In this document: positions 1-44,637 of the stretch, piece after piece
How positions within the stretch are numbered: the stretch's first letter is position 1
Layout of the letters: each line of letters opens with the position of its first letter
Source: Candidatus Omnitrophota bacterium
GTDB taxonomy: Bacteria; Omnitrophota; Gorgyraeia; Gorgyraeales; Gorgyraeaceae
Reading direction: 5' to 3'
Assembly: GCA_042570105.1 (NCBI GenBank)
Contig: JBHPHW010000001.1
Coordinates: 19,932 to 83,931 of the forward strand
Length of the DNA stretch: 64,000 bases
Notes under the pieces: model-generated
What the model was told of the DNA's origin: nothing
The model's database searches: none
What the model saw: only the letters and a program-made list of their open reading frames with translations
Program-made: the position numbers and the translations under genes

Positions 1-230
1 TCAAGGATTAAACGATATTATAGGTCGTGTTGAGAAAGTTTTACCCTATATTAATGATAATAGTTTTGATTTGGTGACTATGGTCAATACATTTGGGATT
101 ATGGGGCGCGAGAGGTATGGGGAACCTATTGACCAGGAATGGCTGATGAAAGAAATAGCTAGAATATTAAAACCAGGTTCATTTGTTGCCATATTAGATC
201 CTTTTAGAGATATAACTATTAACAAACAAG
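1..230 (+). other. C-terminal part of a class-I SAM-dependent methyltransferase domain inside the giant protein (FDLV motif II end, then LKPGSFV motif III-like). Implies an MTase domain straddling the window edge.
   Basis: Translation ...NDNSFDLVTMVNTFGIMGRERYGEPIDQEWLMKEIARILKPGSFVAILDPF matches the canonical F-D-x-V ... L-K-P-G-G region of Rossmann-fold MTases. Confidence 0.5.
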
Positions 231-15200: not shown

Positions 15201-18200
15201 AGATCAACCCAGCTTTTCAAGAGGCGTTGCGTGAGGGGACTTCATTCATTGAGCCAGCGACCCCACCAATAGGGAGGTACAGCTACCCCATAAAGAGGTA
15301 CCGCTATCCCATTTGCTGTATGGCGTCTTCAGGCGCGATGTTACAGATTGTTAAGGAGCGTTTCGGTAAGGACATTGAAATCTCAGCCGTCCGAGCCGAC
15401 ATACACAAGGGTAGCTCAGAGAAACATGACTGGAACGAGCTAAAGATAGGTAGTAGGCGGTTCTATTTGAGTTTCACAGACCACCAGTTTGATAGGAGGC
15501 TGTGGGTACACAATCCGCGCGATAGGAGTAAATGGTATGTCAATGAGCGCGATGTTCAAGACTACGATGATTTATCAGCAGAAGAACGCGATAGATTGGT
15601 CGTTTTTGAGGAGATTACCGGAATAGAAGAGGCATTTTATAAAGATCATGGCCTGACGTTCGTGGAGCCCAATTTCAACAAGTTTGACAATGAAGACGAA
15701 ATCCAACGTGTCATCGCGTTTTTCTATGAAATAAGTGATCAGAAAGAGCTCGAATCCACAGCAGCTGGCGAGTCAAGAGATGAGTTAGCTATTGCGCCAC
15801 GCATCTCAGAAGGAATCCAGGAGAGAAAATCCCTTACTCCCTTAGGTCAAAAGATGTATGACTGGTGGGTTGCTCTAATTCACGAAAACCCAGAAAAGGT
15901 CTATCAGATACAGCTCAAGAAAACGATCGCCCAGGCAGTAGAAGTCGATCCAAAAACTGTTTTCAATAACCGGGCAAAAGTCAATCAGCATTTGAACGCT
16001 GACGGTTATCCTATCATTCCCAATAATGTGGCAGATGTTATTTATAACTGGTGGGTTGCCTTGATAAAAGAAAATCCAGAAAAGGCTTATCAAGTACAGT
16101 TCAAGGAAGCGATCGCCAAGGCAATAGGAGTCCAGCCAAAAACTGTCTCTCATAACCTGGCAGGGATCAACCGGCGTCTCAAGGATGACGATCATCTGGT
16201 TATTCCCAATAAAGTAGCAGATGCCGTTTACAATTGGTGGCGTATCGCAATAGAGGAAGATCCAGAAAAGGTCTATCAGATACATTACCGAAAAGTAATA
16301 GCTCAAGCTGTAAGCGTCAAAGAAAATACTATTACCCATTACCTTACAGAAGTTAATCAACGTTTGAAAAATGACGGACATCTTATCATTCCCAATAATG
16401 CTGCAGATGCTATTTACAATTGGTGGTTTGTCCTAATCGCGCAAGATCCAGAACAGGCTTATCAAAAACAGTCCCGGGAAACAATAAGAAAGGCTACAAG
16501 GATCAATATACACAGCGTCTCAACAAATAACCTTGCAAAAGTCAATCAGCGTCTTGAGTCTGAAGGCCGTCCTCAGATTAAGGTAGGGAGAAGGAGTAGG
16601 GCAGAAGAATCCGAACAACCTGAGCGGCCTTTAGCCATCACATCCGCACGTGGACGCGAATTCCATAGATTAGAAAATGGAATGTTGCTACCCGGACCGT
16701 TTACACCTCAAGACATTGACCCATTATCTCTCTTATTCGGCAATAGAGGGACGACCACTCCTCACACAAATCGTGGAGTGCCAGATGTTTTATCTTTAGA
16801 CTTTTTGGGATTAGGGGGAGGAAGAGCACGCGGATATCAGAGGAAAAAATATCCCTCTATAGCTCAGAGCAGTCACCGCCCAGGTGGAGACCGTAAATTT
16901 CCGATCATCACAGGTGGTTCTGAGCCTAGAATACAAGGAAGATCTATCCCCTACTCAGATGAAGAAAAAGAAATATTAATGGCTTATGGAGAAACAATAG
17001 AAACTATAAATAAGGAGTTGCCTCATATAGTAAGTAGGAGGATCGAACTTCTTATTAGTAGTATCGAGGTTAAATCTGACAGAAGTCTCCTGGAGGCAAG
17101 AGAAGATTTTCTACCAATAGGGGACAAACTTTCAAGAAAAGGGTATTCTTCCAATATAATCGAATCAGTAAATCAAAAGATTGAAGAAGGATACCCTGAA
17201 AGCTTAGCTTTCCCTGGAGCAATTATGGCACAGGACCCTAAGAGGGCAGCAGAACTAGGGGTAGCGCAAGCCTTTCGAGAATACTGGCAAACCAGAAACC
17301 CTAAATGCATGGAATTCATTAGAGAACTTTCAGTAATTTCTGAAGAAGATGTTGATAATGAGATATGGAAGATCTATCAAACAAAGACAAGAGAGATGCT
17401 TAGATTTATCCGGATAATCGTGATGATATTCCCTGCATTTATACCTAGAGCAAGAAAGAGGAAAATCCTGGGATTTGTTAAAGAGAATCCTGGAGCAGAG
17501 CAGAGAGAGATTGAAAAAGAGCTAAAGATTCCCAGCTCTTCACTTTCCAAGGACATAGATGAATTAGAAGAAGAAGGTTTAATTGAGAAAAGAAGAGCAG
17601 GTGGACAGAACAGGATCTATCCAAAAGGTAAAGTGCCTGATATTGTCCTCCCAAGAATACAGGAAAGGATCCTAAATGTCATTAAAGAAAAACCAGGACT
17701 AATCGGCGCAGACATTGGAAGGGAATTAGATATCCCCTGGTTTAATGTAGGTTACAACATACGTAGGTTGGAAAAAAGAAGATTGATTAAAAAAGTAGAA
17801 GTAAGAGGAGAGGCTAGAATTTATCTTGAGGGCGAGACTCCAGAGACGGCTCTTACAAAAAGAGAAGAGGAAATACTCAGACTAGTAAGGGAAAAGCCAG
17901 GATTAACGCATGCAGAAATTGCAAGAAGGATAGGATTAACGCCAATCACAATAAAAATTAATACAGAAAGACTAGAAGAGTTAGATTTGGTTGAAAGAGT
18001 AAAACTATTAAAGTGGGACAGGATCTATCCCAAAGGTGAAGTCCCCGAGGTACCTCTTATTGAAAGACAGAAGAGAATCTACAGAGCGATCCAGGATAAC
18101 CCGGGAATATCTCAAAGAGAACTTGAGGAGAAGGCAAAAGTTACCGAAGGTACAGTCAGAAGAGATCTAAAAAAATTAAAAGAGGTGGGTTTAGTAAGGA

Positions 18201-21200
18201 TGTTTAGGGTAGGTAGGGGTTATAGGATATATCCGGAAGATAAGGCTCCTGAAAGCCCTCTTACAGTAATACAAGAGACGATTCTAGAAGATGTTAAGAA
18301 AAATCGTGGCACAACGCAAGCAGCCATTGCAAAAAGGACAGGATACAAAAACGGTGTAGTTAGCTCTAATTTAAGAAAATTAGAAGAAATAGGGAAGGTT
18401 GAGATACTGAGGACAGGATTAGGTACCAGGGTCTACTTAAAGGGTAGAGCTCCGAAGGTTTCTCTTACGCAAAGAGAAGAAAGAATACTCAGGCTAGTAA
18501 GGAGAAATCACGGATTAACGTTAAAAGAGATTGATGAAAGGCTAAGAATCCCTCGGGGCACAACTAACTATAATGTAAAAAAGTTAGAGCAATCAGGAGA
18601 GGTTGAAACAATAGAAGTAGAAGGAAAAATAAAGGTCTATCCAAAAGGTAAAGTTCCCAAGGTCGTTCTTTCCAAAAGGCAAAGTGAAATTTTTGATATA
18701 GTTAAAGAAACCCCTGGAATCACACGCCCAGAACTTGCAAGAAGGGTAGAAATTACTGGAGCAGCATTAGATAAGCATAGAGCCAGATTAGAACAAAAGG
18801 GTTTGATCGAAATAGTGAGGGTTGAAAAGGAAATTAGAATCTATGAAAAAGGAAAGGCTCCTAAAACCCCTATTACTACAAACCAGGAGACTATCCTGGA
18901 AGTAGCCAGAGACTTCCCTGGGCTGACATATGAAGAAATTTTTCAGTTAGGGTTATTCGCATTTATAAATACCGTTGGAGGAGTTGCAAGAAGGTTAAGA
19001 GCAAAGGGCTTGGTCAGGATAATAAGAGACGGACAAACAATGAGGGTTTATTCGACTGAAGAAGGGGAGACGATTTTAGAACATTTGAAACCTATTAAAA
19101 GTCTTCCTGCATCAGTTGTCTATCATGGACTTTCTATAACTGTGAGAGAATTTATAGATACTTTAGAAATAAAAGATAAGATCTTAGACGACCAGGGTAA
19201 TCTTAAAGTTAATATTTATATTAACGATGAAGCAGCAAGGCTTGATAGTCTTATTGAAAACGATGATAAGGTAAGCATTATGTCGATTGGGGCCAAAAGT
19301 GATAAAGGTTCCTCTGCGACATTTAGTTTAGGAGGCACCTGGATGCTTGTAAGACTTATTTCTTTAGCTGCAATGATTGCGTTGTTCACATTACCTGTAT
19401 CATGGCGTGGCTTAGGATTTGCTACAATAATAGCAATGGTTGACTTAGATCAGTTTTGTGCTGCTGTAGATCCCCGTATAGTGCGTTTATTCTCAGGCCG
19501 TGGAAATCGAGGTCTCTTGCGTCCCTTTTCAAACGCAGAGCCCTTGGACCAACTCGAAGTTTCTGAGCGGACAATAAAGCATGGTATCTATAATGGAAAG
19601 CCTACTATCTCTCTTGTTAAAGATGGAAAGATATATGCTGATAAAGACAAACTCAGCCACATAGGTCCTTACAACCAGCTCTTAATATATATTCACGAGC
19701 TCTTCCACAAGTTGTTGTGGTTTGGGGAAGGACGACATTGGAAAGAACTATTCGCAAATATAGGTGTTGCTAGTTTCTTACTTGTAAAGAATGTAGCGCC
19801 GCTCCTTCTTATTCTCATCTTTACAGACATAACAAATATGTTGGCCCTTATTCCTCTCATTATAACGCCCATCCTTTCACATAAGTTCTTCAGTGCGATT
19901 GCAGCTAGGTGGACTGTGGGGCGCGTTACACTTATAGCTGGAAAGGATTTAGAAGAGAAGATCAAGGAAGTTGTGAGTCTAATGAAGTCAAGGGAATATG
20001 ATCGTGCGCTTCAGATTATTAATCCACTAATCGAAGAGCACAGAAGATACATCCTTTCAGAGTTACGCGCTGAAGCTTCAAATGGACTCCAAAGAAGCAT
20101 TGCTGAAAGATTGTCCAGCGAGATAGACTTTAATTTACCCCTTAAAGACCAGGCAGTATTCGATGCGGTATCGATGATGGCAAGACACGGAGCATATTCA
20201 CGATACTCTAGTGTTACTATGGAGAATTTAGGTTCTCTTATGGTTTTTCATGATCTTTCTTTACATCTTAAAGAGAACGGCATGATATCTAACAGCAATG
20301 ACTTAAAGGAACTCTATGATGGATTTCTCCAGCCCTATCGATATGCAACAGCAGGAGTGCCAGTTCTCAATATTGCCGCACGAATAAAGCCTTTTAGCTT
20401 GGACTTGATGAACCACATGTCGGAAGAATTTTACATGTATTGCTGGAGAGCAATAAGAGCTCAAAGAAATTATATTTTGCGTGCAGTGGATCATATATGG
20501 AATAGCCTGGTGGGCGTCTTTTTGGTCGTAAGGAATCTTATTCAGGTAAGCTTGGTCTCGCATAAGATTCGCCGTAAGATAGAAGAGCGTAACGCCATGG
20601 TTGCTCAAATCTTGTTATCGCATCTGGGGGAGGATTCAGGATTTAAGACACGTATCTCCCGCCTTAAGAATGCGCCAGATGTTCTCGGGAGTCTTTATAA
20701 AAGTGAGCCCATAGATTTTGCAGCATTGCTTGCGCTGGTTGACACAAGCGGGTTTTATTACTCGGCACCAAGCGTGGCCACCGAACACGAAAAGGGACAA
20801 ATAGTCCGAAAAGGGAAGGAGATTGTTAATATCGGTGTGGATGCCAGTATGTATCACCCATTAGACGTAGATTATTTATCACTCTTAGAAGAAGGACATA
20901 ATAGGGATGATGCAAACATGGTTCTTATCCATGACAGCTCAAAGGTCAGCATTAAGAAGGTAAATGGTAAAAAGGTTATCTCTGTGAGTGAAGGTATTAT
21001 GTTTCATAATAGAGCGTTAAAGCTAGTGAGGTTTGATGAACCTCTGACATTACATTACATTGCAAATTTCCAAGGCGGAATTGATGGATACATTAGTAAA
21101 GTGAATGTTCCTAGTTGTGGCCATAGTAGTATTACAGATTACACTGAAGAAAAAGATATATCAGACCTCATTCTTAGAGAGAGCGGCATAAGCTTGCCAG

Positions 21201-24200
21201 AGACTTCTGCGATCATAGTGAGAGATAGTGGGGTCGCTAGCCTTGTTGAACGACGCAAGAACGCAGATAATGTCTATATCATGACCCAAGAGGATCATAA
21301 AGAGATGAGAGAATTTGACGATCCCACTTTTAGGGGTCGTATAAAAGAGATGTTAATAGGATTCTTAAAAGGACATAAACTTGAAGAAGCTGTTTTAAAG
21401 CCTAATCGAGCAGCTCACGGAGACGATGTATTATTTTTCGATGAACAAAATCTGGATGAAGCTACTGATAAGGCACTACAACTTTTACAGGCAGGGCAAA
21501 ACATAATCATGCAGGAGCGCATTAAGCCTCCCTTTGTGATGGAAGAAGATGGACCAAAAGACTGGAACCTCAGGATCTTTGTCTCGCACGATCAACACGA
21601 TCAACCTATTGTTAGTGATATGGATAATATGCTTGTACGCATTGATAAAGAAGGAGATGCTGTTAATATCAGTAAGACAGCTAAAGTGTGCACAATTGAG
21701 GAAGTCGCGTCTCAATTGGGTATCTCCGAGATCGAACTAGGAGAGATAAAAGAGCAGGTGGAAGAGATTTCAATAAAGGCATTTCAGGCAATTGAGAATG
21801 CTATGAGAGATGATAAGGTATTAGGTGATTCTGAACATTCTACAGATTTAATGGGAGTCGATGTGATGGTAGTTAAGGAAGAAGGAAAATGGGTTGTGTA
21901 TATGATCGAGGTAAATGATTTTCACTCAGGAGGTCAGGGTTTCTTGGATAGACATTTACGTGAACTCCAGGCGCAGGGCGTTACAATCGCAAAAGATAGT
22001 ATAGGGAAGGCAAATCGTGACTTTGTAGCTACTATGGTTCGCCGAGCGCAGAAATACGCTGGAGTCGTTGATTTTAATCCCTCTATATACCGTAAAATCA
22101 GAGCCCAGTTAAAGCGCCTTAGATATTCCGACGCCTATAGTAATAAAGTTTTCGGAGAGCTAATATCGAGGGATAGACACATGCCAAATGGAGATGCATC
22201 AAGGCCTGATGCTTCTAGTATGGAAGATCAGTTAGAGCTTATAAAGAGAGATATCGAAGAGCTTGTCAGAAAAAAGACAGACCGATCGGATAGAACGTTC
22301 AATATCTACTGTGTTGGTATTGGTCAAGATACTATTGGAACAACCACTATACTTCAAATACTCTACGAAACGCTCCTCGGGAGGCAAAAGGTGTTGTCGG
22401 AATCAGATAAGCCAAAAGCAGATCCAGAAAATTGCACTGTAAGAATATTCCGGATAGACCCAAGAGAAGAAGTTGTTGAAAAGGCACAGGCCTACTTTGA
22501 TGAGGTTATGGCTAATCCACTTGAGAGTATTGGCGTAAATTTTGGCACTTTGGTAGTAGAAGCACATTGTGCTAATGCGCTTGATCCTGATCAACTGAGT
22601 GAAGTTAAAAGGCATATTCGCTCAAGTCATAAAAAGAGATGGTACCAGAGAAACTTTGACGCTGATTATGTTTTTCATCGTAGTCTGTCATATCCAAATA
22701 GTATGGCCCAAGACCCAGAGAGCGCTCTTTATAAAGATCTTAGATCTATGAGCGTTGAGGATATGGCGACTTTTATAGATATGTTTTTACAAAGTTATAA
22801 TGTTTTACTTGCGTTTGGAAAGAATGGTACACATTACATTGTTGAGCCAGGAGGCATTGGTCATTCTCGACATCTTAAAGATGATCGTGAAAGTTATGAA
22901 GTTGGAGTCTATCGAGTTCCTGGGACAAAGATAATAACTAGACGTGAGTTAATGTCAATGACTGATGACCAAGACCCACAGATCCCCTTGGGAAGCATAG
23001 GAGATCGCGCAACAGGGATACTTAAAGTAAATAATATAAATGCTGTTAGAAAGATGAAACTCCAGAACTTTCAACAGGCAATAGAGGATAGCAAAGCGAA
23101 GACAGTTAAAAAACTACTTGATGCAGCACCTCTCATTAAAACAGAAGGACTACTGCCCGATGGTACTGAATGGCGCATTGAACCATTTGAAAAATCCGAT
23201 AAACGTTTGCTTAATGAATGGTTCGCTTACGAGAATAGAAGCTTACTAATCCCAGTTACTACACATTATCTTAGATCTTTTTTAAGGTCTGGAGGTTTTG
23301 ACTATAAATTTATAACGATAAATTCTGAAGGCGAAGAGAGAATCGAAGGAGTATTAGGACATAGCCATAGGTTTCCTTCTGGTTGGAGGTATGATCTTAA
23401 GGGATTTAAGGCATGGTGGCCTTATATAGATATAGTAGAACTTGCTTCTTGGAATAGAGGTCGAAAAAGACAAATAAAAGGTATTGCATCAAGACTTATG
23501 GCAGTAACTATTAGGGATTATCTATTCCAAGGCTTTGATGGTAGGACGCTAGTATGTGCTGAAACTAGGGATGGTCGACGTTTAGTAAGTAGAATTGGAT
23601 TTGAACCAATAAGCCATAGAGGTTTCTTCCCTCACTGGTATGAACTTACTCCAGAGAAGGCCTTAGAATTTCTTGAGCAACAGATTAAATTAGAAAGCGA
23701 TAAAGGTGATAGCGCTGTAAACCAGACTACAGAGGCAAAGGAATTGGTTGAACCAGTTGATCCTAATGAAATTCAAACTTCTCCTATCGGACCATCCTAC
23801 CAATTTGTAGGAGATTTTTCGGAAAAGGGCTCTATGCTCAGGGCTCAAGTTAAAAGTGAAGTAGGGCTTCAGTATGAGTTAAGTATTGAGAGAATACCGG
23901 CTGAGTCAAGTATCGAGAGTATACTAATACATAGAGATTCTTATGATTACAACCTCCGGTATAACGGTAGTCAAGTTATGAATATTAGAGTTACCAATGT
24001 AGATGGCAAAATTTATATTGGATATATAGGGCGAGCAGATCGCGATAGAATTCATGACGGCGTATATTATATGCTTTTTAATATTATGCTTTGCGACCTA
24101 AAAGATAGAGTTGGCTTGGACTTTAATGGATTAAAAGTAGGAGGTGTAATGGGACTTAGATATTCAAACCCGAGAATTGCAGCAGGCTCAAATAGGTTTG

Positions 24201-25861
24201 GAATTGAGTTATTAGAAGAAGAACAAGAGAGGGTTTTGGAACTTATCGAGAGAGAAGTTGAAAGCGGTGTTTCTATTAAATATGTTGCAGAGAGAGCAGA
24301 AGAACCTTATTTAGCCGTAGGGTCATGGAAACCTTTTAAGATCTTTTTGAGAGGTGCTGATGGTAAGTCCATTACTGATTTGAAACCTTATAAAGAATTA
24401 GAAGACTTAGCTAATAGGGATCCAGAAAAGTTTTTACAGGAACTCAAGAAGCTCATCGCCCAAGGAGAAGTCTTTCTGGGGGGATGGCGCCTAGATTACG
24501 AATTGAATCCTGAAAAACTTAACTGGTTACAGTCTTATGTATCAGGCCTGCCGCAGCTACCGTGGCGCGTGGAGATTGATAAACTTCCTGCCAGAAAGAT
24601 CCTTGCATCACTCAATCTTTTAGAATCCGAAAATATACCTGGCGTAACACTTGAACGTGAATGGGAAGAGGAAGAGATGGGCTTGCAAGTTAAGAGGTTT
24701 AAGCTTCCCAAAAGGCACACTGTCGAAGTAGCTACAGAAGGAATTGAAATCCTCCAACAAGAACTGGCAGATCCAAGAAAAGTACAACTTACAACCTTTG
24801 ATTTCCTTTATAGCCCTGAAGGCTATCTAGTTGCAGTCTTCCCAGTTATTTCTCAAGAAAGGACCAGCTTGTCTCCTGCGGACAAAGAGATCAGTGATAT
24901 GAACCTCAGGTATCTTAATCTTTCTCGATATTACTTTGAAATTCCTCCGCTTAAAGGCCCTAGGGCAGAAGAATTATGGGCAAAATATGTAAAAGAACAG
25001 CCTGAATTAGAAAAGAAGATACAGGTCTATCGAGACTCAAACTTTGGATCACTTGATATAATAGATCTACCTTCAGGTACGTCGCTTCATATTCCTTACT
25101 TAGTATTAAGTGCTGATATATCGGAAGGAGAAGTAATGCTAGATGCATTTGATCCTGATTTTGAGTCTGAAGAAGAGCCAGAAATTAAATACGAGAAGAC
25201 TATGATATTACCATTTCCTACAACTTGCGAACTTAATATTGATGAGGATGAAGGATATTTTAGGGCACTTCTCACGAGACTCGGATTGTACGAAGGAGCA
25301 GATGTTCTAGTGGTAGGACCTGGGACAGGGATTGATACGTGGCTTGCATGGCTTAAGACAAAAAATAAGATTGATGTTATTGGAATAAATCCACTCGAGG
25401 TTGCAGATACAGAATTGACCGCAGAATATTCAGGATTTGAAGTTGAGACAATTGTTGGCGACAACATAATTGATGAAAAAGGGGATCCGCGTTTTAATCG
25501 GAAATACGATTTTGTAATCTGGAACATGCCTGCATTTGGATCACTTTCAGGAATACGTAATGGATCGATTGAGAAAACTTCCTTGTTGCAATACCATGAT
25601 GGTGATGTAGATGGAGCAATGTTACGTCGTTTTGCAAAAGGTCTTCATAAAGTGCTTAAACCAGGTGGTAGAGCCTTGATATGGAATGCATTTGAAACTT
25701 TAGAACCTTTTGAAATTCTCAAATCAGAAGGGATTAAGGTTGAAAAACTTAATAGAGATGCATATTTACTTACTATTAATGAAGAGGCATTTACGCATAT
25801 AAATAGCGAAGGTATTGGTGAAAAAGTTACCAGAACCGCTGAAAGGAGAACATGCATATAA
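1..25861 (+). CDS. Giant multidomain membrane protein, 5'-partial. Reading frame 2 is open from nt 2, so the gene starts upstream of the window. At least 8619 aa are encoded here: MTase tail, Cro/C1-HTH repeats, kinase-like motifs, DedA-like TM domain, about 16 winged-helix plus 4 LuxR-type HTH, 62-aa NWW repeats, ATP-grasp-like, GNAT-like, C-terminal SAM-MTase.
   Basis: Six-frame track ORF 71..25861 (8596 aa); my translation of nt 2-70 in the same frame (QGLNDIIGRVEKVLPYINDNSFDLV...) has no stop; stop TAA at 25859-25861. A 25.8-kb open frame in roughly 40% GC DNA cannot arise by chance. Domain calls are from motifs read in the translation (see sub-features). Confidence 0.9.
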   Translation, partial: QGLNDIIGRVEKVLPYINDNSFDLVTMVNTFGIMGRERYGEPIDQEWLMKEIARILKPGSFVAILDPFRDITINKQEESAIKAGLDIVHSKIHSHPHHSENVLVACKFPLVTQEGQIEDGKVEVAFDYLFNLVGFSTKLRRVREYGKTLRDLIDNLEVKYSDIRRRILDSEGDLREVIIISRNGEVLERAKALDTELNPGDVVQIFHRVGGGSGTELEADLTESLYELTGIEKRIWQHAIKELKPEEIALLDERLNSPGLVGPLLIHFYLDTYVARDNGIEKLAVLALDYLAQEDIDIEAVIRDEHKEEFEQVRRLYLWYQWRIIDGKYIEYYNSEEIARMSGVSVDIVNSYKDMIRRHLVWMYSLNWVVRCRERIRAKARTRGWSEEKLREELGVSEERYGYIGWVAERIWPSYVKKASEIFRKEVSFLMYGGGRAEVLDRLPIGSRIRLLRYEKGLTREELALRYEGNARLIGDWESGIRIPNPNNMKQLAEALGVEVSEVMYGLERSEALKVLTMGGRIELFRYERGLSQRALESECDIRVNGTVGAWEKGRGIHRADEVKKLAEVLGVEVSEILHGLERSEALKVLTPGDRVELFRHEKGLAKGKLASMMKGIPLPERTKKLAEILGVDVSEILYGLERSEVLKVLTLGKQIRLFRNEEGLTQGMLASRCDVNDSTVERWEMDIRTPEPDNMEKLVEIFPELSQIGESGTDGSPIVIADWDTQVEEGLKRLLFTPVFEDNEALWQKALTLLRTDPPHSLRSLYQTFQRVLNKKGFPFGKFQETYRGRINFTEELQPPVLKPWQETERPSLDTIAYVKLQQRKLLHAVWRRLPYILHADPESQFEIVISTMGENDILDLPRREDVLWVDVLLKGDTPLYRELNAKLPGLDYEQLQGSLGIIKLIAATNEHNEPVLIAPWIGVNPGIWKWASRERSQVEGWHREALTALELLKDQIGVKEILIPTSTQMKALPPLQQKINDHPPFENVLGLHYSRPSPQHKEVTRTVTLWNNEAEMTAKFWSTVSDGSEGRVAPLIPQWKPHHIDERITAFTRKAKLHMSGIFTEKEIDSVIQRFEIIDESLYRRHFSLITVESSSPGDEESPSENALYLLQVAPTLLGVRPKSYVLVDWRAGESFSDIEKWILQLNALAPLLLHVNRELALNVPFGQSLIVVRDSVINERLNDLIRSSGWGRGISYKEEEYEYWAKEGFPSLYVDLMRERTRLDQSKPSTGIWSRWLEGVGVPEIDTLSDAETVLLQRELDRFDATLELMADYLREVWGVPIDFRRLPRLLGKTATRRRTRVVPRISLPKQQTSDPVTDSSESSYSRLSSDRRFSVDSILIDSHQEQVREILAGFILGEISEVEAIDRIIALGIDRGLAEAYTLQVQSPLMMLGGKEPDPAGGTIGTAVVPLDILPDTAGEPETDFSDSSEWETPLLWLGHVLNLYDSKSFMRKGRDVSDRRISETAHGFDGLHFDKNKEDALYEYYKLCLEWEQGLVDSEAIDKFLSELWEKEKLIKELSKEDNWYLFSALRDERQRFISISCAEHWYRNMGIRLGGLENKIAKTCLEMMKKDMGSFSMVILPLVTSIISHMPPPGLEDSEGLAVISEVSFWQSSSQDRRLRSIFMQFYHFVPHGIWADYLEKLSKHLSPNEARPIIKRAVDILEKIWRGQQKIDEDLEGQILPLSEEEWSREVFMFYLFLALEEGCSRGDIERLVVRTIINPETLRIFPQKELERLEAILNEIKERGVPPKWAEGLLERQTHLEAEINRRSGKSSQDNVSAQETPDGFVVKGKAFFNIAWRHQFVQKLDVIFEKPIRHATREVMLKSSLEFLSEVVEKRSLDPVERGSLLEWMNAPYLSLSSHYLIVSVFLKDFKARAKERAIPEENIPSIIQDIRERNTLVADLPGSDVTANDRLEYFRQNLGESSDLIPFGWGYVACSGIQDPTIYFLDPQGYISLQSFNLKWALEKNFDVPYPVLQAYPEWDIGSLSGWWIEAEDFEKLVPKLLEVKDSAPEEIKEQLERLRQEIIERCNDSPYLTWEGSIGVIHGLLRQYPGWKDGEGLLKELREMPRAPNGTQDNEIAFFHIFGDGHAQRLPDVLNMKHCSRDWRLYGQMGKPKFKIEARWGLDGRCRATLGGRAYIGGSGPRTYRFSFKDGDFTTEKTLDAMWVRLWPHEKEHKLLVTSNRGMTLFVRDEQDVKVLWELPLAMQVVDRVRWIGEGDRLSWLLVETPDKVFIVDARTGEIKERFHLPIKGVDIECDFEDEDYKYLYLTVHTHNLAGGHITEEGIQYGPVWSVDLLKMAEEEGEVRQSPLPVTPRVIEKLRQALKEVNVDTTSLTDEQIEQLYRIIRHRERRPKQHLRQIADLTRGSSLGWNVSMRQRVRDVLADFAKTALTENLTGRQLQEIGAGQQVRVLTGQGLDYVIKVQRYREEIRATYDRMDVDPQSFEYQFAVRRTFEGYQEGNRTAEEILKDTGTILEIESLASHGVSLTFTNKAGEQETVSPDSFEVQKRADYTGGEMLERLINEGRIDEAKQLLTDFFELNHKLWRLGVLLYDFNILENIGVMVDADGQFQLYLMDFGATLRESPLTHRWVNTLFPTGFFMGGDTIFGRSPHIVVLKDELRRFGDTNGEVFSHWVKLVREYLTIGQFNAIWRIDVVDQGIVDEKHPISSSWTRKAMVTSGLGAVISAGLIGLASQLPELKNILYIILPVLGVSFIFTNGILYALHRNLRRLEDQISTGTIRAGPHSLIRPFHNALPSEENSPYLAYANSGILYVNKGALTNLNPILQYAVYLHELTIHIIPYILWGIFCDLLWIKRGIREVKIGQVHLITARHFDNRTINEFRLALDKCQNKKEVLGLLEKYQPLLEGTERAVEQILQYVKQGKKVAVGVEQDPSALKEILQEMPENIANLRIIMQRKRIDWTDANSDIFEKIISIYSKIAGVLYFSHKELLDSGQVELIGLDSDRLRNVPSIVTDDARGQAIALLGTLSQMSMEVVEEELEIRDAHMSKKILSYYKNPDKSDVTFVVLLGSRHFRRMKNNLIVLGLHELVDWYALQPGEVSARWIRKAKDLLLELSQYGWLGMGYLKDLSPDVIIKLSRAIYVHRKKESNDFEGSEVVERFWKNSHITYEYAERFGEVYAYWYAQLDDAKKSGKLIKLPTFGEDDEVLDIGSGLSGLNIIENWDSPARITLLGNDPFVIAMLMTAKRIYGRNNIKIVYSYVNEWRFPEDTFTYIRADKILPYLSEEERERLFEEVYSALRNGGTFASVNITDDLDLPEECASSLRELGLDAVVRPLPYEFDEISDAIKVGIFAVKKSGGIIDSQLSERGRKLVEWVEESQGVDVTELREWLDFTKIRNEAQGGFVILDWTTFWGLSWGSLSSLIKTIVSDNLEPLDDALRREKQYIVSSAEKALHEAIKNAEIWGSDHLPGHLAIVTWHIAPDGLTFHIIDEAVGQSDTELESPRLVPGSRPLPSDGWIGDGEGIRQIEQLGFSVEAHAIVKDGSRLGTDVILRKNFVARKGQISSRLKRFLIVPSVVIAGLFLSGFTGDYEDVLNLVLGIFSAVVLIGAWGYILSPKLVEWWGHFWDWFKGYYLQIGIVLLVIGVSFPIFLYQGNIKEVMGEFGYLGAFLISMVNNLTVIVPGPGILAAISLATEFNPWLIAFLAGLGATFGQVTSYGLGYSSEPVVKKVWGYKRISGGMRRWGGPFIFLMYLLPPVFPFADIAGIIAGTLRYPLLKYFLYCMPGNILKHIYLVWGGVLGWDALSPFLPDIFKLGSSSIESNMMAFLPFAGLFMVGGVLSGPTTKIAAERDENGVTVSLPGNGGKSKVRFSREEVLILTARGQSSEELAEETGIDLPSRILLLKRSIFSKLKEAWVAFDTLDDARDMYLSAIKRELLKKGYPEAIVNVAAMSETPWKEARRVLNEIQIRLDEGRSPSLALPWAIIYRSPRQAINLGTEIAMQEFLNEASSPERRNESIRFLRELERVAPEEDINMEIIRICSLSPETIEMFAREKSSDVFGDLIKDALSKPLLTPNQRRILNTVKENPGLIEAEISRRTGFMESTVTRNIRILESKRLVQTARVKGRVEVYLYGQVPEDALLTIDRILALLRKNPQQGLTIKAIARRIGVSKSTVRRNVDVLKSKGLVKIVKEGRGFRVYLPSKFQETAREKILNALREDPEKVLRKSTIGRKAGIPKTTVKRHIDILESEGLVRTKEVVGGIGVYLPDEVPEDILTTDEKILKALGEENDLTQEALSKKTGLHVDTVGSAVKRLEAKGLLKIEKSGIRNANRVHLKTDKDASLIKPAISGGSEESFVLQLPDGTAHIFAPGDRIRHPLYGNGIILEVVPDKDGVPGVNIEFSYSKEGQAKLSLCLELSALQGKLSPLERESGSLVKRENEDSLDDTERNILGLMAKGKTYREIAEETEIPVKKITTSIFSAIRRKFKTTSRGDPDLRLRTIIIGAKRGDIEDLNIANFVRRIDRLLIITRTLLNGQEDAIVAFMDEGFSNREIASELGIEEGEVEAHISNINRELKESIEEITEESILNLEETGTILPLSDLEREILRANGDSPREVAEELDKAGGQIESYWNSILVKFNVSTITEARKIFFVKIRGGLLEQGYPELIADGVARDKNPVKEARELLGRQEGFIEDGYPPRLASLLALKERDPENIIELGIEIAIQEFLEGRNSKCIEFLEGLMEEVSIEDITDKIRNICLRDLEILKGFSRIKQSTRFGDLIKSIIPDTPNQEKTLKIVQENPGLTAREIAGRTQAAIRTVNRHVKELKDKDLIETRRVGREVRVFLKGEVPADVLTYREKILKIVQENPGLIITEIARRTRIPGTTVRRHVEELESKDLIETRRVGIEVRVFLKGEVPADILTSRERILKILKENPGLTTTEIARRTQIPGTTVRRHVKDIESTDADREDAGGEESTPQPLVAVAGPGTWAPEGELVALVDSELPRGARQHHPENLFDDQIERMLYPEHQQRGGGSNATESHMTTLVDQVREGNPTAIQEAIALLKKTSSSLLDSQMNELEQAVCESLEIFFHEINPAFQEALREGTSFIEPATPPIGRYSYPIKRYRYPICCMASSGAMLQIVKERFGKDIEISAVRADIHKGSSEKHDWNELKIGSRRFYLSFTDHQFDRRLWVHNPRDRSKWYVNERDVQDYDDLSAEERDRLVVFEEITGIEEAFYKDHGLTFVEPNFNKFDNEDEIQRVIAFFYEISDQKELESTAAGESRDELAIAPRISEGIQERKSLTPLGQKMYDWWVALIHENPEKVYQIQLKKTIAQAVEVDPKTVFNNRAKVNQHLNADGYPIIPNNVADVIYNWWVALIKENPEKAYQVQFKEAIAKAIGVQPKTVSHNLAGINRRLKDDDHLVIPNKVADAVYNWWRIAIEEDPEKVYQIHYRKVIAQAVSVKENTITHYLTEVNQRLKNDGHLIIPNNAADAIYNWWFVLIAQDPEQAYQKQSRETIRKATRINIHSVSTNNLAKVNQRLESEGRPQIKVGRRSRAEESEQPERPLAITSARGREFHRLENGMLLPGPFTPQDIDPLSLLFGNRGTTTPHTNRGVPDVLSLDFLGLGGGRARGYQRKKYPSIAQSSHRPGGDRKFPIITGGSEPRIQGRSIPYSDEEKEILMAYGETIETINKELPHIVSRRIELLISSIEVKSDRSLLEAREDFLPIGDKLSRKGYSSNIIESVNQKIEEGYPESLAFPGAIMAQDPKRAAELGVAQAFREYWQTRNPKCMEFIRELSVISEEDVDNEIWKIYQTKTREMLRFIRIIVMIFPAFIPRARKRKILGFVKENPGAEQREIEKELKIPSSSLSKDIDELEEEGLIEKRRAGGQNRIYPKGKVPDIVLPRIQERILNVIKEKPGLIGADIGRELDIPWFNVGYNIRRLEKRRLIKKVEVRGEARIYLEGETPETALTKREEEILRLVREKPGLTHAEIARRIGLTPITIKINTERLEELDLVERVKLLKWDRIYPKGEVPEVPLIERQKRIYRAIQDNPGISQRELEEKAKVTEGTVRRDLKKLKEVGLVRMFRVGRGYRIYPEDKAPESPLTVIQETILEDVKKNRGTTQAAIAKRTGYKNGVVSSNLRKLEEIGKVEILRTGLGTRVYLKGRAPKVSLTQREERILRLVRRNHGLTLKEIDERLRIPRGTTNYNVKKLEQSGEVETIEVEGKIKVYPKGKVPKVVLSKRQSEIFDIVKETPGITRPELARRVEITGAALDKHRARLEQKGLIEIVRVEKEIRIYEKGKAPKTPITTNQETILEVARDFPGLTYEEIFQLGLFAFINTVGGVARRLRAKGLVRIIRDGQTMRVYSTEEGETILEHLKPIKSLPASVVYHGLSITVREFIDTLEIKDKILDDQGNLKVNIYINDEAARLDSLIENDDKVSIMSIGAKSDKGSSATFSLGGTWMLVRLISLAAMIALFTLPVSWRGLGFATIIAMVDLDQFCAAVDPRIVRLFSGRGNRGLLRPFSNAEPLDQLEVSERTIKHGIYNGKPTISLVKDGKIYADKDKLSHIGPYNQLLIYIHELFHKLLWFGEGRHWKELFANIGVASFLLVKNVAPLLLILIFTDITNMLALIPLIITPILSHKFFSAIAARWTVGRVTLIAGKDLEEKIKEVVSLMKSREYDRALQIINPLIEEHRRYILSELRAEASNGLQRSIAERLSSEIDFNLPLKDQAVFDAVSMMARHGAYSRYSSVTMENLGSLMVFHDLSLHLKENGMISNSNDLKELYDGFLQPYRYATAGVPVLNIAARIKPFSLDLMNHMSEEFYMYCWRAIRAQRNYILRAVDHIWNSLVGVFLVVRNLIQVSLVSHKIRRKIEERNAMVAQILLSHLGEDSGFKTRISRLKNAPDVLGSLYKSEPIDFAALLALVDTSGFYYSAPSVATEHEKGQIVRKGKEIVNIGVDASMYHPLDVDYLSLLEEGHNRDDANMVLIHDSSKVSIKKVNGKKVISVSEGIMFHNRALKLVRFDEPLTLHYIANFQGGIDGYISKVNVPSCGHSSITDYTEEKDISDLILRESGISLPETSAIIVRDSGVASLVERRKNADNVYIMTQEDHKEMREFDDPTFRGRIKEMLIGFLKGHKLEEAVLKPNRAAHGDDVLFFDEQNLDEATDKALQLLQAGQNIIMQERIKPPFVMEEDGPKDWNLRIFVSHDQHDQPIVSDMDNMLVRIDKEGDAVNISKTAKVCTIEEVASQLGISEIELGEIKEQVEEISIKAFQAIENAMRDDKVLGDSEHSTDLMGVDVMVVKEEGKWVVYMIEVNDFHSGGQGFLDRHLRELQAQGVTIAKDSIGKANRDFVATMVRRAQKYAGVVDFNPSIYRKIRAQLKRLRYSDAYSNKVFGELISRDRHMPNGDASRPDASSMEDQLELIKRDIEELVRKKTDRSDRTFNIYCVGIGQDTIGTTTILQILYETLLGRQKVLSESDKPKADPENCTVRIFRIDPREEVVEKAQAYFDEVMANPLESIGVNFGTLVVEAHCANALDPDQLSEVKRHIRSSHKKRWYQRNFDADYVFHRSLSYPNSMAQDPESALYKDLRSMSVEDMATFIDMFLQSYNVLLAFGKNGTHYIVEPGGIGHSRHLKDDRESYEVGVYRVPGTKIITRRELMSMTDDQDPQIPLGSIGDRATGILKVNNINAVRKMKLQNFQQAIEDSKAKTVKKLLDAAPLIKTEGLLPDGTEWRIEPFEKSDKRLLNEWFAYENRSLLIPVTTHYLRSFLRSGGFDYKFITINSEGEERIEGVLGHSHRFPSGWRYDLKGFKAWWPYIDIVELASWNRGRKRQIKGIASRLMAVTIRDYLFQGFDGRTLVCAETRDGRRLVSRIGFEPISHRGFFPHWYELTPEKALEFLEQQIKLESDKGDSAVNQTTEAKELVEPVDPNEIQTSPIGPSYQFVGDFSEKGSMLRAQVKSEVGLQYELSIERIPAESSIESILIHRDSYDYNLRYNGSQVMNIRVTNVDGKIYIGYIGRADRDRIHDGVYYMLFNIMLCDLKDRVGLDFNGLKVGGVMGLRYSNPRIAAGSNRFGIELLEEEQERVLELIEREVESGVSIKYVAERAEEPYLAVGSWKPFKIFLRGADGKSITDLKPYKELEDLANRDPEKFLQELKKLIAQGEVFLGGWRLDYELNPEKLNWLQSYVSGLPQLPWRVEIDKLPARKILASLNLLESENIPGVTLEREWEEEEMGLQVKRFKLPKRHTVEVATEGIEILQQELADPRKVQLTTFDFLYSPEGYLVAVFPVISQERTSLSPADKEISDMNLRYLNLSRYYFEIPPLKGPRAEELWAKYVKEQPELEKKIQVYRDSNFGSLDIIDLPSGTSLHIPYLVLSADISEGEVMLDAFDPDFESEEEPEIKYEKTMILPFPTTCELNIDEDEGYFRALLTRLGLYEGADVLVVGPGTGIDTWLAWLKTKNKIDVIGINPLEVADTELTAEYSGFEVETIVGDNIIDEKGDPRFNRKYDFVIWNMPAFGSLSGIRNGSIEKTSLLQYHDGDVDGAMLRRFAKGLHKVLKPGGRALIWNAFETLEPFEILKSEGIKVEKLNRDAYLLTINEEAFTHINSEGIGEKVTRTAERRTCI
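1340..2110 (+). repeat. Array of about 4 Cro/C1 (XRE)-type HTH repeats (62-75 aa units: LFRYEKGLTxxELA ... KKLAEvLGVEVSEILYGLERSEALKVL) within the giant ORF. Repeat cores are near-identical at DNA level (1505-1552, 1727-1774, 1907-1954).
   Basis: Protein repeats LLRYEKGLTREELALRYEG / LFRYERGLSQRALESECD / LFRHEKGLAKGKLASMMKG / LFRNEEGLTQGMLASRCD followed by conserved LAEALGVEVSEVMYGLERSEALKVLT. DNA 48-mers gag(g/a)t(a/t)(a/t)tgtatgg(t/c)(c/t)tagagagaag(c/t)gagg(c/t)attaaaggtatt(g/a)acc recur three times. Confidence 0.6.
7570..7790 (+). other. Protein-kinase-like (APH/choline-kinase-type) catalytic motif region inside the giant protein: DFNILENIGV (catalytic-loop-like D-x-x-x-x-N) followed 20 aa later by LMDFGATL (DFG-like).
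   Basis: Translation ...WRLGVLLYDFNILENIGVMVDADGQFQLYLMDFGATLRESP at about nt 7684-7770, compared with the PKL-fold pattern HgDlhpgNil...vIDfg.a. Confidence 0.35.
10620..11460 (+). other. Integral membrane region of the giant protein with a DedA/VTT (SNARE-associated, TVP38/TMEM41-like) domain preceded by 3-4 TM helices.
   Basis: Hydrophobic helices FLIVPSVVIAGLFLSGF, LVLGIFSAVVLIGAWGYIL, IGIVLLVIGVSFPIFL. Then YLGAFLISMVNNLTVIVPGPGILAAISLA ... FGQVTSYGLGY ... GGPFIFLMYLLPPVFPFADIAGIIAGTLRYPLLKYFLYCMPGNILKHIYLVWGG, collinear with YqjA/DedA motifs (N..F.PGD, G..VSY.LGR.LG, RF...R...P..AG). Confidence 0.5.
11540..11650 (+). other. LuxR/GerE-type HTH module 1 in the giant protein (LTARGQSSEELAEETGIDLPSRILLLKRSIFSKL).
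   Basis: Pattern L(T/S)xRExEvLxLxAxGxSnxEIAxxLxIsxxTVxxHxxNIxxKL read from translation. Confidence 0.5.
12150..12930 (+). repeat. Winged-helix (MarR/TrmB/ArsR-like) HTH array A: 4 tandem units of about 63 aa (ILxxVKENPGLxxxEIAxRxGxxxxTVxRxxxxLExKGLVxxxxxGRxxxxYL).
   Basis: Translation ILNTVKENPGLIEAEISRRTGFMESTVTRNIRILESKRLVQTARVKGRVEVYLYG; ILALLRKNPQQGLTIKAIARRIGVSKSTVRRNVDVLKSKGLVKIVKEGRGFRVYL; ILNALREDPEKVLRKSTIGRKAGIPKTTVKRHIDILESEGLVRTKEVVGGIGVYL; ILKALGEENDLTQEALSKKTGLHVDTVGSAVKRLEAKGLLKIEKSG. Confidence 0.6.
13255..13850 (+). repeat. Three further LuxR/GerE-type HTH modules (ERNILGLMAKGKTYREIAEETEIPVKKITTSIFSAIRRKF; DAIVAFMDEGFSNREIASELGIEEGEVEAHISNINRELK; EREILRANGDSPREVAEELDKAGGQIESYWNSILVKFN).
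   Basis: Three spaced copies of the ExxILxLxAxGxSxxEIAxxL...v...i...KL pattern in the translation. Confidence 0.5.
14285..14815 (+). repeat. Winged-helix HTH array B: 2.6 tandem copies of a 201-bp (67-aa) unit that is more than 90% identical at the nucleotide level. The unit encodes ILKIVQENPGL..EIARRT.IPGTTVRRHV.EL.SKDLIETRRVG.EVRVFLKGEVPAD.LT.RE.
   Basis: The DNA string cctaaaaata(g/c)ta(c/a)aagaaaacccaggattaa recurs at 14303, 14504 and 14705 (period 201). Downstream ...aaagatctgatcgagactcggagggtaggga(g/t)agaagttagagttt(t/c)tctgaaaggtgaagtcccggcagat occurs twice. Confidence 0.85.
15857..16600 (+). repeat. Four tandem copies of a 186-bp (62-aa) repeat encoding YNWWVALIxENPEKxYQxQxxxxIAxAxxVxxxTVxxxLAxxNxRLxxDGxxxIPNNvADaI. 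A possible additional HTH-like module of unknown family.
   Basis: ta(t/c)(g/a)a(c/t)tggtgg recurs at 15857, 16043, 16229 and 16415 (exact 186-bp period). The translation shows four collinear copies, each beginning NWW or DWW. Confidence 0.75.
17455..19090 (+). repeat. Winged-helix HTH array C: about 8-9 tandem units of 60-70 aa (RILxxVKEKPGLTxAEIARRxGLTxxTxxxxxxxLEExGLVExxxxxxxxRIYPKGxVPExxL).
   Basis: Translation shows successive ...KENPGAEQREIE..., ...KEKPGLIGADIG..., ...REKPGLTHAEIA..., ...QDNPGISQRELE..., ...KKNRGTTQAAIA..., ...RRNHGLTLKEID..., ...KETPGITRPELA..., ...RDFPGLTYEEIF... Each is followed by a basic wing (RxGRGxRIYP/VYL) and a (K)GxVPxxxLTxRExxIL linker. Confidence 0.6.
19330..19900 (+). 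other. Second transmembrane block of the giant protein (at least 3 predicted helices), followed at about 19660-19740 by an HExxH-like motif (IYIHELFHKLLW).
   Basis: Hydrophobic runs MLVRLISLAAMIALFTLPV, GFATIIAMV, IGVASFLLVKNVAPLLLILIFTDITNMLALIPLIITPIL. HELFH read at about 19690-19705. Confidence 0.4.
21400..21960 (+). other. ATP-grasp-like (RimK/glutathione-synthetase-type) domain inside the giant protein.
   Basis: IIMQERIKPPFVMEEDGPKDWNLRIFVSHDQ...ISEIELGEIKEQVEEISIKAFQAIE...DLMGVDVMVVKEEGKWVVYMIEVNDFHSGGQGF. The ending (GvD.mv...G...v.EVN..pg) is the characteristic ATP-grasp C-terminal strand-loop. Confidence 0.45.
23440..23640 (+). other. GNAT-acetyltransferase-like motif A region inside the giant protein.
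   Basis: WNRGRKRQIKGIASRLMAVTIRDYLFQGFDGRTLVCAETRDGRRLVSRIGFEP resembles the GNAT motif A (R/Q-x-x-G-x-G/A ... l.l.v...N..A..lY...GF). Confidence 0.3.
25290..25700 (+). other. C-terminal class-I SAM-dependent methyltransferase domain of the giant protein. Motif I is VLVVGPGTGID. The motif IV variant DFVIWNMPAF resembles the (D/N)PP(Y/F) of amino-MTases (N6-adenine / N5-glutamine type). Post-motif LKPGGRALI.
   Basis: Translation ...YEGADVLVVGPGTGIDTWLAWLKTKNKIDVIGINPLEV...RKYDFVIWNMPAFGSL...GLHKVLKPGGRALIWNAFE. Confidence 0.5.
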
Positions 25862-44000: not shown

Positions 44001-44637
44001 TGTTATTGAATCCAGTAAAACCAGACTCAGGCCAATACTCATGACGACCATGACTACAGTGTTAGGTCTTTTGCCTCTGGCATTGGGGATAGCCGAGGGT
44101 TCAGAGCTTCAGAGCCCGATGGCTATAACAGTAATGGGCGGACTTATTGTCTCCACTATCCTGACCCTTTTCGTGATACCGTCTCTTTATACTATTATTG
44201 CGAGCATCATTGCTCTGAGACCAGTCTTAAAGCCAGTGTATGCGGAAGCGCTCAAGCCAACTTTAGTGGGGCTAGCTATTCAAGAGGAAAGAGTGATACC
44301 ATTGCCTCCGCCGCCGCAAGTTGCGCTAGAACTACCAAAGCCAGAGTCAGAACCGCCAAAACCAGAGATAAAACCTGTGGTTCCAAAGCCGAGCATTGAG
44401 CCAAAAGAATTACCAGGCCCTGAGCCAGAAAAACCGCCTTTACAAGAGTTGAATAATCGACAGAAACAGCTAGTGGAGCATTTGAAAACAGTAAAAAGGA
44501 TCACGCGCAAAGAATACGCCAAAGTTTTTAAGATATCCGTACCAACAGCAGCCAGGGATTTAAAGGAGTTATTGGATAAAGGAATGCTTATTGCCCATGG
44601 CCCCCTGGGGCCGGGCAGGTGGTATGAGCTGAAGTGA
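41014..44637 (+). CDS. RND efflux transporter (HAE1/AcrB family) carrying a C-terminal Pro-rich linker and a cytoplasmic winged-helix DNA-binding domain.
   Basis: 12-TM AcrB architecture with two large periplasmic loops. After the last TM: PLPPPPQVALELPKPESEPPKPEIKPVVPKPSIEPKELPGPEPEKPP, then QKQLVEHLKTVKRITRKEYAKVFKISVPTAARDLKELLDKGMLIAHGPLGPGRWYEL (Fic/AlbA_2-associated wHTH-type motif ...TAxRDLKELvxKGil...G.GrgtxY.L). Confidence 0.8.
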   Translation: MRLSEFSVDRPVTISMFFLGVLMLGLISLTRLPRELFPSITYPQLTVITAYENAAPEEVETLITKIIEETVGTVSNLKRISSISKEGVSIVTAEFGWGVDMDFASLGVREKIDLIKERLPLGSTDPIVMKFNPFELPIMTLSVTGDKTPSELLRLSRKFIKDELEKVEGVAYSNISGGLEREILVSIDEGRLSASRVSITKIVEALKSSNLNYPAGTIEEHFYEYLIRTMGEFKIVPEIEKTIVGKDESEKDPRVNKASSYEQEGRARLIYLKDIAEIKDTFQERSSISRYNGKENISIAVQKQAGMNTLQVAQNVRKRLTEIRGDLPRGMDVKVVYDQSIFIKRSIRGVMKAAIQGGILAFLVLFVFLRNIKASLIVAFSMPISIMVAFSLMYFNGITLNMLSLGGLALGIGMLVDNAIVVIENIYSHFQRKKDIKESSKSGASEMQGAIFSSTLTTVAVFLPMIFVVGVAGQLFKELAFTVSFSLLASLIVALSLIPRLTAVGGRVKASDRGPLSSATASSAVSLSSAEDTKNKYFTFGLDRLYSKAIPKILKHRWPFLGGILLIFTLSIGLFTLIDKEFMPKVDQREFIIKVNMPGGTKLKVTDNVIEKIERELFDMEEPGGVAVSIGSSKKRDFTQGLETMGSHQAQIIVTLRKGKKWKATSKIVDRLKNRLDRLDLEGAEIEYILQESVFKTALQGSAPIVIEIKGKDLKKIEEVSEYVKDGLLDIKGIYGIRTSLTKPSPETKVNILKDRASLYNLSTAVIAQAAHTAIKGVVATKFKEEGREVDIKVRLRKEGRKRLSQLRNILIHSPLDIEVPLSEVAYIAQGVGPSEIKRLDQQRVVLVTANIADRALDKVILDINLLLERIEEAHIRDLDMLKDREKDIDMSLSGESREMRESFRSLRFALLLSILLVYMIMAAQFESLWQPFIIMFTVPLSLMGVFVALFLTRTPISVVVMLGFIILGGIVVNNGIILIDGINRLRAKGVELIEAVIESSKTRLRPILMTTMTTVLGLLPLALGIAEGSELQSPMAITVMGGLIVSTILTLFVIPSLYTIIASIIALRPVLKPVYAEALKPTLVGLAIQEERVIPLPPPPQVALELPKPESEPPKPEIKPVVPKPSIEPKELPGPEPEKPPLQELNNRQKQLVEHLKTVKRITRKEYAKVFKISVPTAARDLKELLDKGMLIAHGPLGPGRWYELK

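Follow-up and report, generated by a model that had tools for sequence, protein, structure and literature searches.

What does the C-terminal end of a giant bacterial protein do when it appears to carry several different enzymes one after another? The question is raised by a 64,000-nucleotide stretch of DNA from a Candidatus Omnitrophota bacterium (assembly GCA_042570105.1, contig JBHPHW010000001.1, positions 19,932 to 83,931 of the forward strand; hereafter the window), which opens within a single giant open reading frame (ORF) at nucleotides (nt) 2..25861 of the + strand, with its stop codon at 25859-25861. No stop was found in 2..70, and since the frame is already open at base 2, the ORF encodes at least 8,619 amino acids (aa), its N-terminus having been lost at the start of the window; we number residues so that aa i begins at nt 2+3(i-1). 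The C-terminal ~1,680 residues, encoded by the final ~5 kb of the gene, consist of five units: an ATP-grasp domain, a Rossmann-fold domain that we call domX, a GNAT-like domain, an unassigned region and a two-domain methyltransferase module. In this work, we argue with middling confidence that this cassette is a set of functional, independently shuffled catalytic modules, whose likeliest chemistry is directed to amides or amines on a protein or peptide.

The last of the five units ends in a class I N-methyltransferase domain similar to HemK2/N6AMT1 (aa 8401-8575, 25202..25726, +). The original prediction, made by a model from the sequence alone, had quoted two strings from this domain, and both were located as claimed: motif I, VLVVGPGTGID, at aa 8435 (25304-25336), and motif IV, WNMPAF, at aa 8507 (25520-25537). 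The generic methyltransferase models of Pfam gave only weak matches here, and the best NCBIfam model was TIGR00537 (HemK2/MTQ2; E 2.5e-8). Its 33.8 bits fall far under the equivalog cut-off of 87, and the domain is therefore a homologue, not an equivalog, of HemK2/MTQ2. A profile made from 27 sequences of the module matched human N6AMT1/HemK2 in the PDB over the whole catalytic domain (E 2e-8), in an alignment that pairs NMPA with NPPY, YxP...D with YEPAED and WDGDxxG..L.RF with WAGGRNG..MDRF. The AlphaFold2 (AF2) model of the whole module had a predicted local distance difference test score (pLDDT) of 84.7 and a predicted template modelling score (pTM) of 0.86. Against the PDB, Foldseek matched this model to Asc-Orf2 at the top and also to N6AMT1/KMT9, TrmM, PrmC, RsmC, Trm11, PrmA and Bud23, with E ~1e-8 to 1e-6 for N6AMT1, KMT9 and PrmC, so that structure modelling, one of the checks suggested for this domain, came out in favour of a class I N-methyltransferase.

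Because of the profile alignment to N6AMT1 and the matches to N-methyltransferase folds, the proposal that NMPAF lies at the position of the (N/D)PP(Y/F) motif is correct. In PrmC and Mtq2, NPPY coordinates the substrate glutamine of the GGQ motif (PMC5372719). The replacement of the first P by M had been taken as a possible sign of divergence or inactivity, and our counts over 138 copies of the methyltransferase domain indicated otherwise. The four residues W, N, M and P of motif IV were found in 119, 120, 114 and 130 of these copies, respectively. Since W-N-M-P is kept in 114-130 of the 138, it is the norm of the family and the change to M is not a mark of decay. The three glycines of motif I were also well preserved (128, 134 and 135 copies, from first to third), as were the Asp of motif III (117/138) and the Asp that follows motif IV (D8533 in the window; 135/138). 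The family consensus for motif IV can be written as W-N-M-P-x-(Y/F), in which the aromatic residue, Y but also F, tends to sit one position later than in NPPY, while position 4 is occupied by A, F, S, Y or E and is not a conserved aromatic. The copy in the window keeps motifs I, III and IV.

This domain does not stand by itself. When 1.84 billion representatives were scanned with HMMER, using the C-terminal 1,200 aa of the giant protein as query, 165 matched at E<=1e-3, 130 of them at E<=1e-10, and nearly all of these span query positions 770-1150. The conserved unit is some 380-470 aa long and joins the methyltransferase to an N-terminal partner domain. In the window, the partner domain corresponds to aa 8180-8400 (24539..25201, +) and the two-domain module as a whole to nt 24539-25726. 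The partner domain, of ~220 aa, accompanies the methyltransferase domain in the 74 copies long enough to cover most of the module, and most of it was modelled with pLDDT of 78-94. Neither Pfam nor a sequence search of the PDB gave a match to it, and therefore a kinship with the helical domain of PrmC or with Trm112 cannot be demonstrated.

The module thus shares with HemK2/MTQ2/N6AMT1 (KMT9) and PrmC the class I fold, the GxGxG of motif I, the YxP...D and WDGDxxG...RF motifs and an Asn-x-Pro motif IV at the place of NPPY. It differs from HemK2/MTQ2/N6AMT1 in its W-N-M-P-x-(Y/F) motif and its low score against TIGR00537, and from both HemK2 and PrmC in having its own N-terminal partner domain and in being embedded, and repeated, in giant proteins.

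The first unit of the cassette is an ATP-grasp ligase domain (aa 6943-7393, 20828..22180, +, with its catalytic core at ~21104-22021). Its identity follows from a match to the Pfam TTL family at nt 21692-21919 (E 3.9e-5; 23.5 bits against a cut-off of 20.1). The original prediction had placed such a domain within 21400-25700; the domain was there, but it begins 300-570 nt upstream of 21400. Over 362 aa, it shares 29% identity with an ATP-grasp domain of P0001, namely the first of the tandem pair in this 2,191-aa TPR protein, which matches ATPgrasp_YheCD, ATPgrasp_ST and ATP-grasp_3. Four copies could be aligned, and the K of VLKPN, the ER of QERI, the DxNxR of DWNLRIF, a GxD and the ExN of IEVN were invariant in all four (K191, E230-R231, D245/N247/R249, D345 and E361/N363 in the numbering of the alignment). 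From what is known of the superfamily, we take these residues to be the ATP-binding Lys, the hinge Glu, the catalytic Arg, and the Mg-binding Asp and Glu-x-Asn. The catalytic signature is complete and the ATP-grasp assignment, on this sequence evidence, confirmed; catalytic residues, whose conservation among homologues had been suggested as a check, proved to be retained both here and in the methyltransferase (motifs I, III and IV in 114-135 of 138 copies). A profile of the same four copies matched DcsG (6jil) in the PDB with E 5.8e-4. ATP-grasp enzymes make an acyl-phosphate on a carboxylate and then ligate an amine to it. The domain resembles the amide ligases TTL, RimK, YheCD and DcsG in its TTL score above the cut-off and in its Lys, Glu-Arg, Asp-x-Asn-x-Arg, Asp and Glu-x-Asn signature. 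It differs from TTL in covering only part of the profile (positions 188-257 of 292), and from the whole group in belonging to a small clade known to date from very long proteins alone (P0001 and P0143).

Between the ATP-grasp and GNAT-like domains lies domX, with ~320 aa (aa 7394-7716, 22181..23149, +), which had been overlooked in the original prediction, as had the partner domain of the C-terminal methyltransferase. Eight homologous copies were found in five proteins, three of them in tandem in the Omnitrophota protein P0104. The glycines of a GxG loop (G46 and G48) and an Asp that ends strand 2 (D93) are conserved in at least 90% of the copies. The AF2 model (pLDDT ~85) matched the SABATH, RebM and NNMT methyltransferases in Foldseek (E 2e-4 to 1e-2; 8-13% identity). 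The model would place domX in the class I methyltransferase-like Rossmann fold, and this likeness holds at the level of the fold only. With these class I small-molecule methyltransferases domX appears to have in common the Rossmann fold, the GxG loop and the acid with which strand 2 ends; the weak Foldseek E-values, the low identity and the want of a sequence-profile match set it apart. For this last reason its catalytic residues cannot be mapped. A GxGxxxE-like loop had suggested a CheR-like domain, which the Foldseek matches did not back.

The third unit (aa 7717-7900, 23150..23701, +) is probably a GNAT acyltransferase. It contains the motif-A-like WNRGRKRQIKGIAS, in which RQIKGIA fits the Q/R-x-x-G-x-G/A pattern of GNAT motif A, the motif that joins strand 4 to helix 3. 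Its single homologue, P0129 (36% identity), keeps WNRGxKRQxKGIA and has RQLKGIA at this place. The AF2 model is of low confidence (pLDDT 40-70), and its order of elements, b1-a1-a2-b2-b3-b4-a3-b5-a4-b6, is that of GNAT. Foldseek gave one GNAT match, NAA60 with acetyl-CoA (6th0; E 0.012, TM 0.44). With the Acetyltransf_1 domain of P0006 (aa 978-1073) as reference, hhalign laid RKRQIKGIAS on QEYQHRGIGT, that is, motif A on motif A of a true GNAT, with a probability of just 7.7%. The segment had no Pfam match at E<=10 and none in NCBIfam or in sequence and profile searches of the PDB, and P0129 had no GNAT profile match at E<=0.1. A word-indexed protein search with the GNAT-like alignment gave 0 matches, and searches of genome and metagenome contigs added no homologues. 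Resemblance to GNAT acyltransferases (NAA60, PF00583) is thus found in the RQIKGIA loop, the order of secondary structure and one weak fold match; the domain departs from them in lacking a profile match at the thresholds tried, in having one homologue and in its low-confidence model. The idea that three group-transfer chemistries lie together in this part of the ORF stands for the ATP-grasp (TTL match, invariant signature) and for the methyltransferase (TIGR00537, N6AMT1), and is plausible but unproven for the GNAT. Profile searches divide in the same way, with TTL above its cut-off, the generic methyltransferase models weak and GNAT without a match. The region that follows (aa 7901-8179, 23702..24538, +), of ~280 residues, belongs to no family that we could find: Pfam gave no match, the PDB no sequence match to a query that took in this stretch, and the 151 retrieved proteins no homologue, and AF2 modelled it with pLDDT <50.

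The homologues that carry a name belong to Candidatus Omnitrophota. A genome scan with the alignment of the methyltransferase domain found 28 loci in Omnitrophota, Elusimicrobiota, FCPU426 and metagenome-assembled genomes (MAGs) labelled Planctomycetia. In Elusimicrobia (seven loci) the gene consists of the module alone, at ~490 aa, while the other loci have it within longer ORFs, from 1,000 to more than 6,800 aa. P0002 and P0003 each have four copies of it and several others two, and its reuse in the very long proteins of Omnitrophota, Elusimicrobiota and FCPU426 is often in tandem. The other domains of its hosts vary and include radical SAM, true GNAT, ARMT1, HATPase_c, nucleotidyltransferase and ROK. 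None of these host proteins showed detectable similarity to the giant protein beyond the cassette. Word-indexed protein searches gave one match each for a 1,586-aa and a 480-aa query, sequence searches of the PDB with single segments gave none, and no close orthologues were found in the genome and metagenome contig sets. Since the module stands alone, is repeated and sits among differing host domains, the cassette is, on this comparison, an assembly of self-contained catalytic units brought together by domain shuffling.

In 5-6 of the seven Elusimicrobia loci the stand-alone genes adjoin a multihaem cytochrome c and a protein of ~700 aa (L004, at 7016-12081, and also L003, L006, L008 and L012). 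In L004 the gene lies within the order hemE-hemH-X-hemY, with overlapping stop and start codons. Such neighbours hint that the role of the stand-alone form is linked to haem or cytochromes.

Other domains lie upstream of the cassette in the giant protein. At the very start of the window, nt 2..211 (+) encode what is left of another class I methyltransferase domain, its C-terminal half (Pfam Methyltransf_11, E 2.3e-5, 25.4 bits against a cut-off of 21.2, profile positions 49-94 of 95), as had been anticipated. Four helix-turn-helix (HTH) domains of the Xre type follow at aa 445-710 (1334-2131), and at least 19 winged-HTH domains are arranged in tandem arrays with a period of ~68 aa at aa 4042-6350 (12125-19051), eight of them consecutive at aa 5814-6350. 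Hydrophobic clusters (Kyte-Doolittle, 19-aa window >1.6) were found at aa 2684-2823, 3538-3812, 6443-6634 and 6834-6854 (~8051-8470, 10613-11437, 19328-19903 and 20501-20563). Their sequences suggest several multi-pass membrane anchors, and the enzyme cassette begins ~90 aa past the last of them. No repeat of the C-terminal regions was found elsewhere in the giant protein, and self-BLAST at 1e-6 showed no repeats.

Two further observations concern the N-terminal part of the visible sequence. A beta-grasp (ubiquitin-like) domain of the MoaD/SAMP1/ThiS kind lies inside the protein at aa 143-212 (428-637; NCBIfam moaD_arch E 5e-11, SAMP1 E 7e-11). It ends in ...HRVGGG with more polypeptide after it, and such an embedded di-glycine carrier would require proteolytic release to play the role of a modifier. 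The ~2,600 residues at aa 863-3448 (2588-10345), which include the first hydrophobic cluster, gave no NCBIfam match at E<=1e-3.

How might the cassette work? It would form, at nt ~20828-25861, the C-terminal end of a multi-domain protein that is very long and anchored in the membrane, as described in Omnitrophota. The ATP-grasp ligase would turn a carboxylate into an acyl-phosphate and join it to an amine. Next in the chain would come domX, as a Rossmann-fold unit similar to methyltransferases that use S-adenosylmethionine (SAM), and then the GNAT-like unit, a probable acyltransferase. A stretch of ~280 aa would lead from there to the two-domain module. In its HemK2/N6AMT1-type half, an amide or amine nitrogen would be held at the Asn of NMP, as in NPPY, and receive a methyl group from SAM, while the partner domain is assumed to choose the substrate. 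The modules themselves are probably active. Because ATP, SAM and acyl-CoA are cytoplasmic cofactors, the cassette would face the cytoplasm. As the closest characterised relatives (TTL, HemK2/KMT9 and NAA60) all modify proteins, its substrate would likewise be a protein or peptide, and might be either the giant protein or one of its partners.

Some of our data weigh against this reading. In the N-terminal motif of the methyltransferase, the copy in the window has LPFPTTCEL where the family has PVFPTVYSP (aa 8405-8412, 25214-25237), and the change of Tyr to Cys is unique among the 138 copies; it could perhaps affect the SAM pocket, with motifs I, III and IV intact. At the strand-2 position where HemK2 has Asp, the window copy has Gly, which is the majority residue of the family (87/138, against 41/138 for Asp). 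HemK2 binds SAM only together with Trm112 (PMC5372719). The GNAT assignment draws on weak signals and is weakly supported, domX had no match in Pfam or in sequence and profile searches of the PDB, and the cytoplasmic location is a matter of inference only. In addition, enzymes of small molecules (Asc-Orf2, DcsG and the SABATH family) account for several of the best structural and profile matches, which is an argument against a protein substrate.

This last point leads to the main alternative, namely that active modules tailor not a protein but a small molecule or a polymer of the cell envelope or of a prey surface, as a fused biosynthetic or tailoring line. We regard it as possible, though somewhat doubtful. 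The methyltransferase module has the carbamoyl N-methyltransferase Asc-Orf2 as its top Foldseek match, the ATP-grasp has the D-cycloserine enzyme DcsG as its best PDB profile match, and the fold matches of domX (such as SABATH, RebM and NNMT) are small-molecule methyltransferases. Stand-alone homologues occur in haem and cytochrome gene neighbourhoods, and giant proteins of Omnitrophota have been read as multi-enzyme processors of metabolites or surface polymers (10.1101/2023.11.21.568195; 10.64898/2026.06.07.730766). At the level of sequence, however, the best relatives modify proteins (TTL; HemK2/MTQ2/N6AMT1), and Pfam showed no carrier-protein, condensation or glycosyl-transfer domain beside the cassette.

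It is unlikely that the C-terminal methyltransferase marks DNA or RNA, at N6-adenine or other exocyclic amines, with the HTH arrays of the protein itself bringing the nucleic acid. Enzymes of the (D/N)PP(Y/F) type do include DNA and RNA amino-methyltransferases, Foldseek also returned TrmM, RsmC, Trm11 and Bud23, and at least 23 HTH domains are present on the same polypeptide. Nevertheless, by sequence the closest family is that of HemK2, which methylates protein Gln or Lys, and no target-recognition domain was identified. An aromatic residue at position 4 of motif IV stacks on the flipped base, and in this family that position holds A, F, S, Y or E. Moreover, the module is also present in giant proteins in which no HTH was found, and alone beside cytochrome genes. 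The original suggestion that the protein writes marks on DNA or on a DNA-bound partner was supported by none of our results, the closest characterised relatives being methylases of protein Gln or Lys.

Under a quite improbable variant of the protein-directed reading, the giant protein would be a membrane-tethered 'nucleoid writer', in which arrays of at least 23 HTH domains would keep DNA bound at the membrane and the TTL-like ligase, GNAT-like acyltransferase and HemK2/KMT9-like N-methyltransferase of the cassette would modify DNA-bound proteins, or the giant protein's own HTH domains or MoaD/SAMP-like domain. If true, bacteria would have an analogue of a combined tail-ligase, acetylase and methylase code.

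That the domains are decayed pseudo-enzymes serving only as structural spacers, as the original prediction had also considered, is very unlikely: the Tyr-to-Cys and a Pro-to-Leu change in the N-terminal motif of the window methyltransferase, together with GNAT-like, domX and unassigned regions that match no curated family, would speak for it, but over 138 copies the methyltransferase retains its cofactor and catalytic motifs, and the window copy has them as well (I, III and IV), which contradicts decay there, the GxG and Asp of domX are conserved in at least 90% of the copies, and decay of the ATP-grasp is improbable because all its signature residues are invariant in four copies.

On the other strand, no competing ORF of at least 150 aa was found between 20800 and 26400, and no promoter-like or terminator-like site was found after the stop codon, at the 3' end of the gene. 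The G+C content is ~0.40 throughout the window. Downstream, all genes share the + strand and are of the kinds usual on a Gram-negative bacterial chromosome, including an ABC sugar-uptake system, a GH2 hydrolase and a ROK regulator; TolC, HlyD and two AcrB; and type II secretion system proteins F and J, YchF, PurH, a Mur ligase, MnmE and a histidine kinase. Two of them are unusual fusions. The first AcrB-type RND pump (41014-44637) has a C-terminal extension with a match to HTH_DeoR (aa 1149-1193, E 1.4e-4), and the TolC-like outer-membrane factor (37891-39714) has an N-terminal match to TonB_C (aa 63-123, E 9.6e-5).

Giant proteins of Omnitrophota have been described as membrane-associated, with many transmembrane helices and with methyltransferase and GNAT domains (10.1101/2023.11.21.568195; 10.64898/2026.06.07.730766), and the cassette fits this picture. 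The protein in the window resembles the very long proteins of this phylum ('Archaeovorin'-type and 'multi-enzyme' classes) in its great length, its several hydrophobic clusters, its methyltransferase and GNAT-type modules and its homologues in Omnitrophota MAGs. On the other hand, its visible length is at least 8.6 kaa and not >30 kaa, no SecA, glycosyl-hydrolase or NUDIX appears among its 25 best Pfam families (mostly HTH) or its NCBIfam matches, and it has at least 23 HTH domains and an ATP-grasp. A search by term of the main text of the same two works (10.1101/2023.11.21.568195; 10.64898/2026.06.07.730766) found no mention of HTH arrays or of ATP-grasp. What differs from the published picture is the conserved NMP variant and the partner domain that goes with it, a family below every curated cut-off, as well as the ATP-grasp and the HTH arrays.

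The presence of such a cassette and of large HTH arrays on one polypeptide is an unusual combination. If the modules merely tailor a metabolite, the protein would be an ordinary case of an architecture already reported. With 130 cluster representatives at E<=1e-10 and a fixed NMP variant of NPPY, the HemK2-related two-domain module constitutes an uncharacterised family, and it may represent a new class of N-methyltransferases with a substrate other than a release factor. Once found, that substrate would provide a handle on the role of the cytoplasmic enzymes of these giant proteins.

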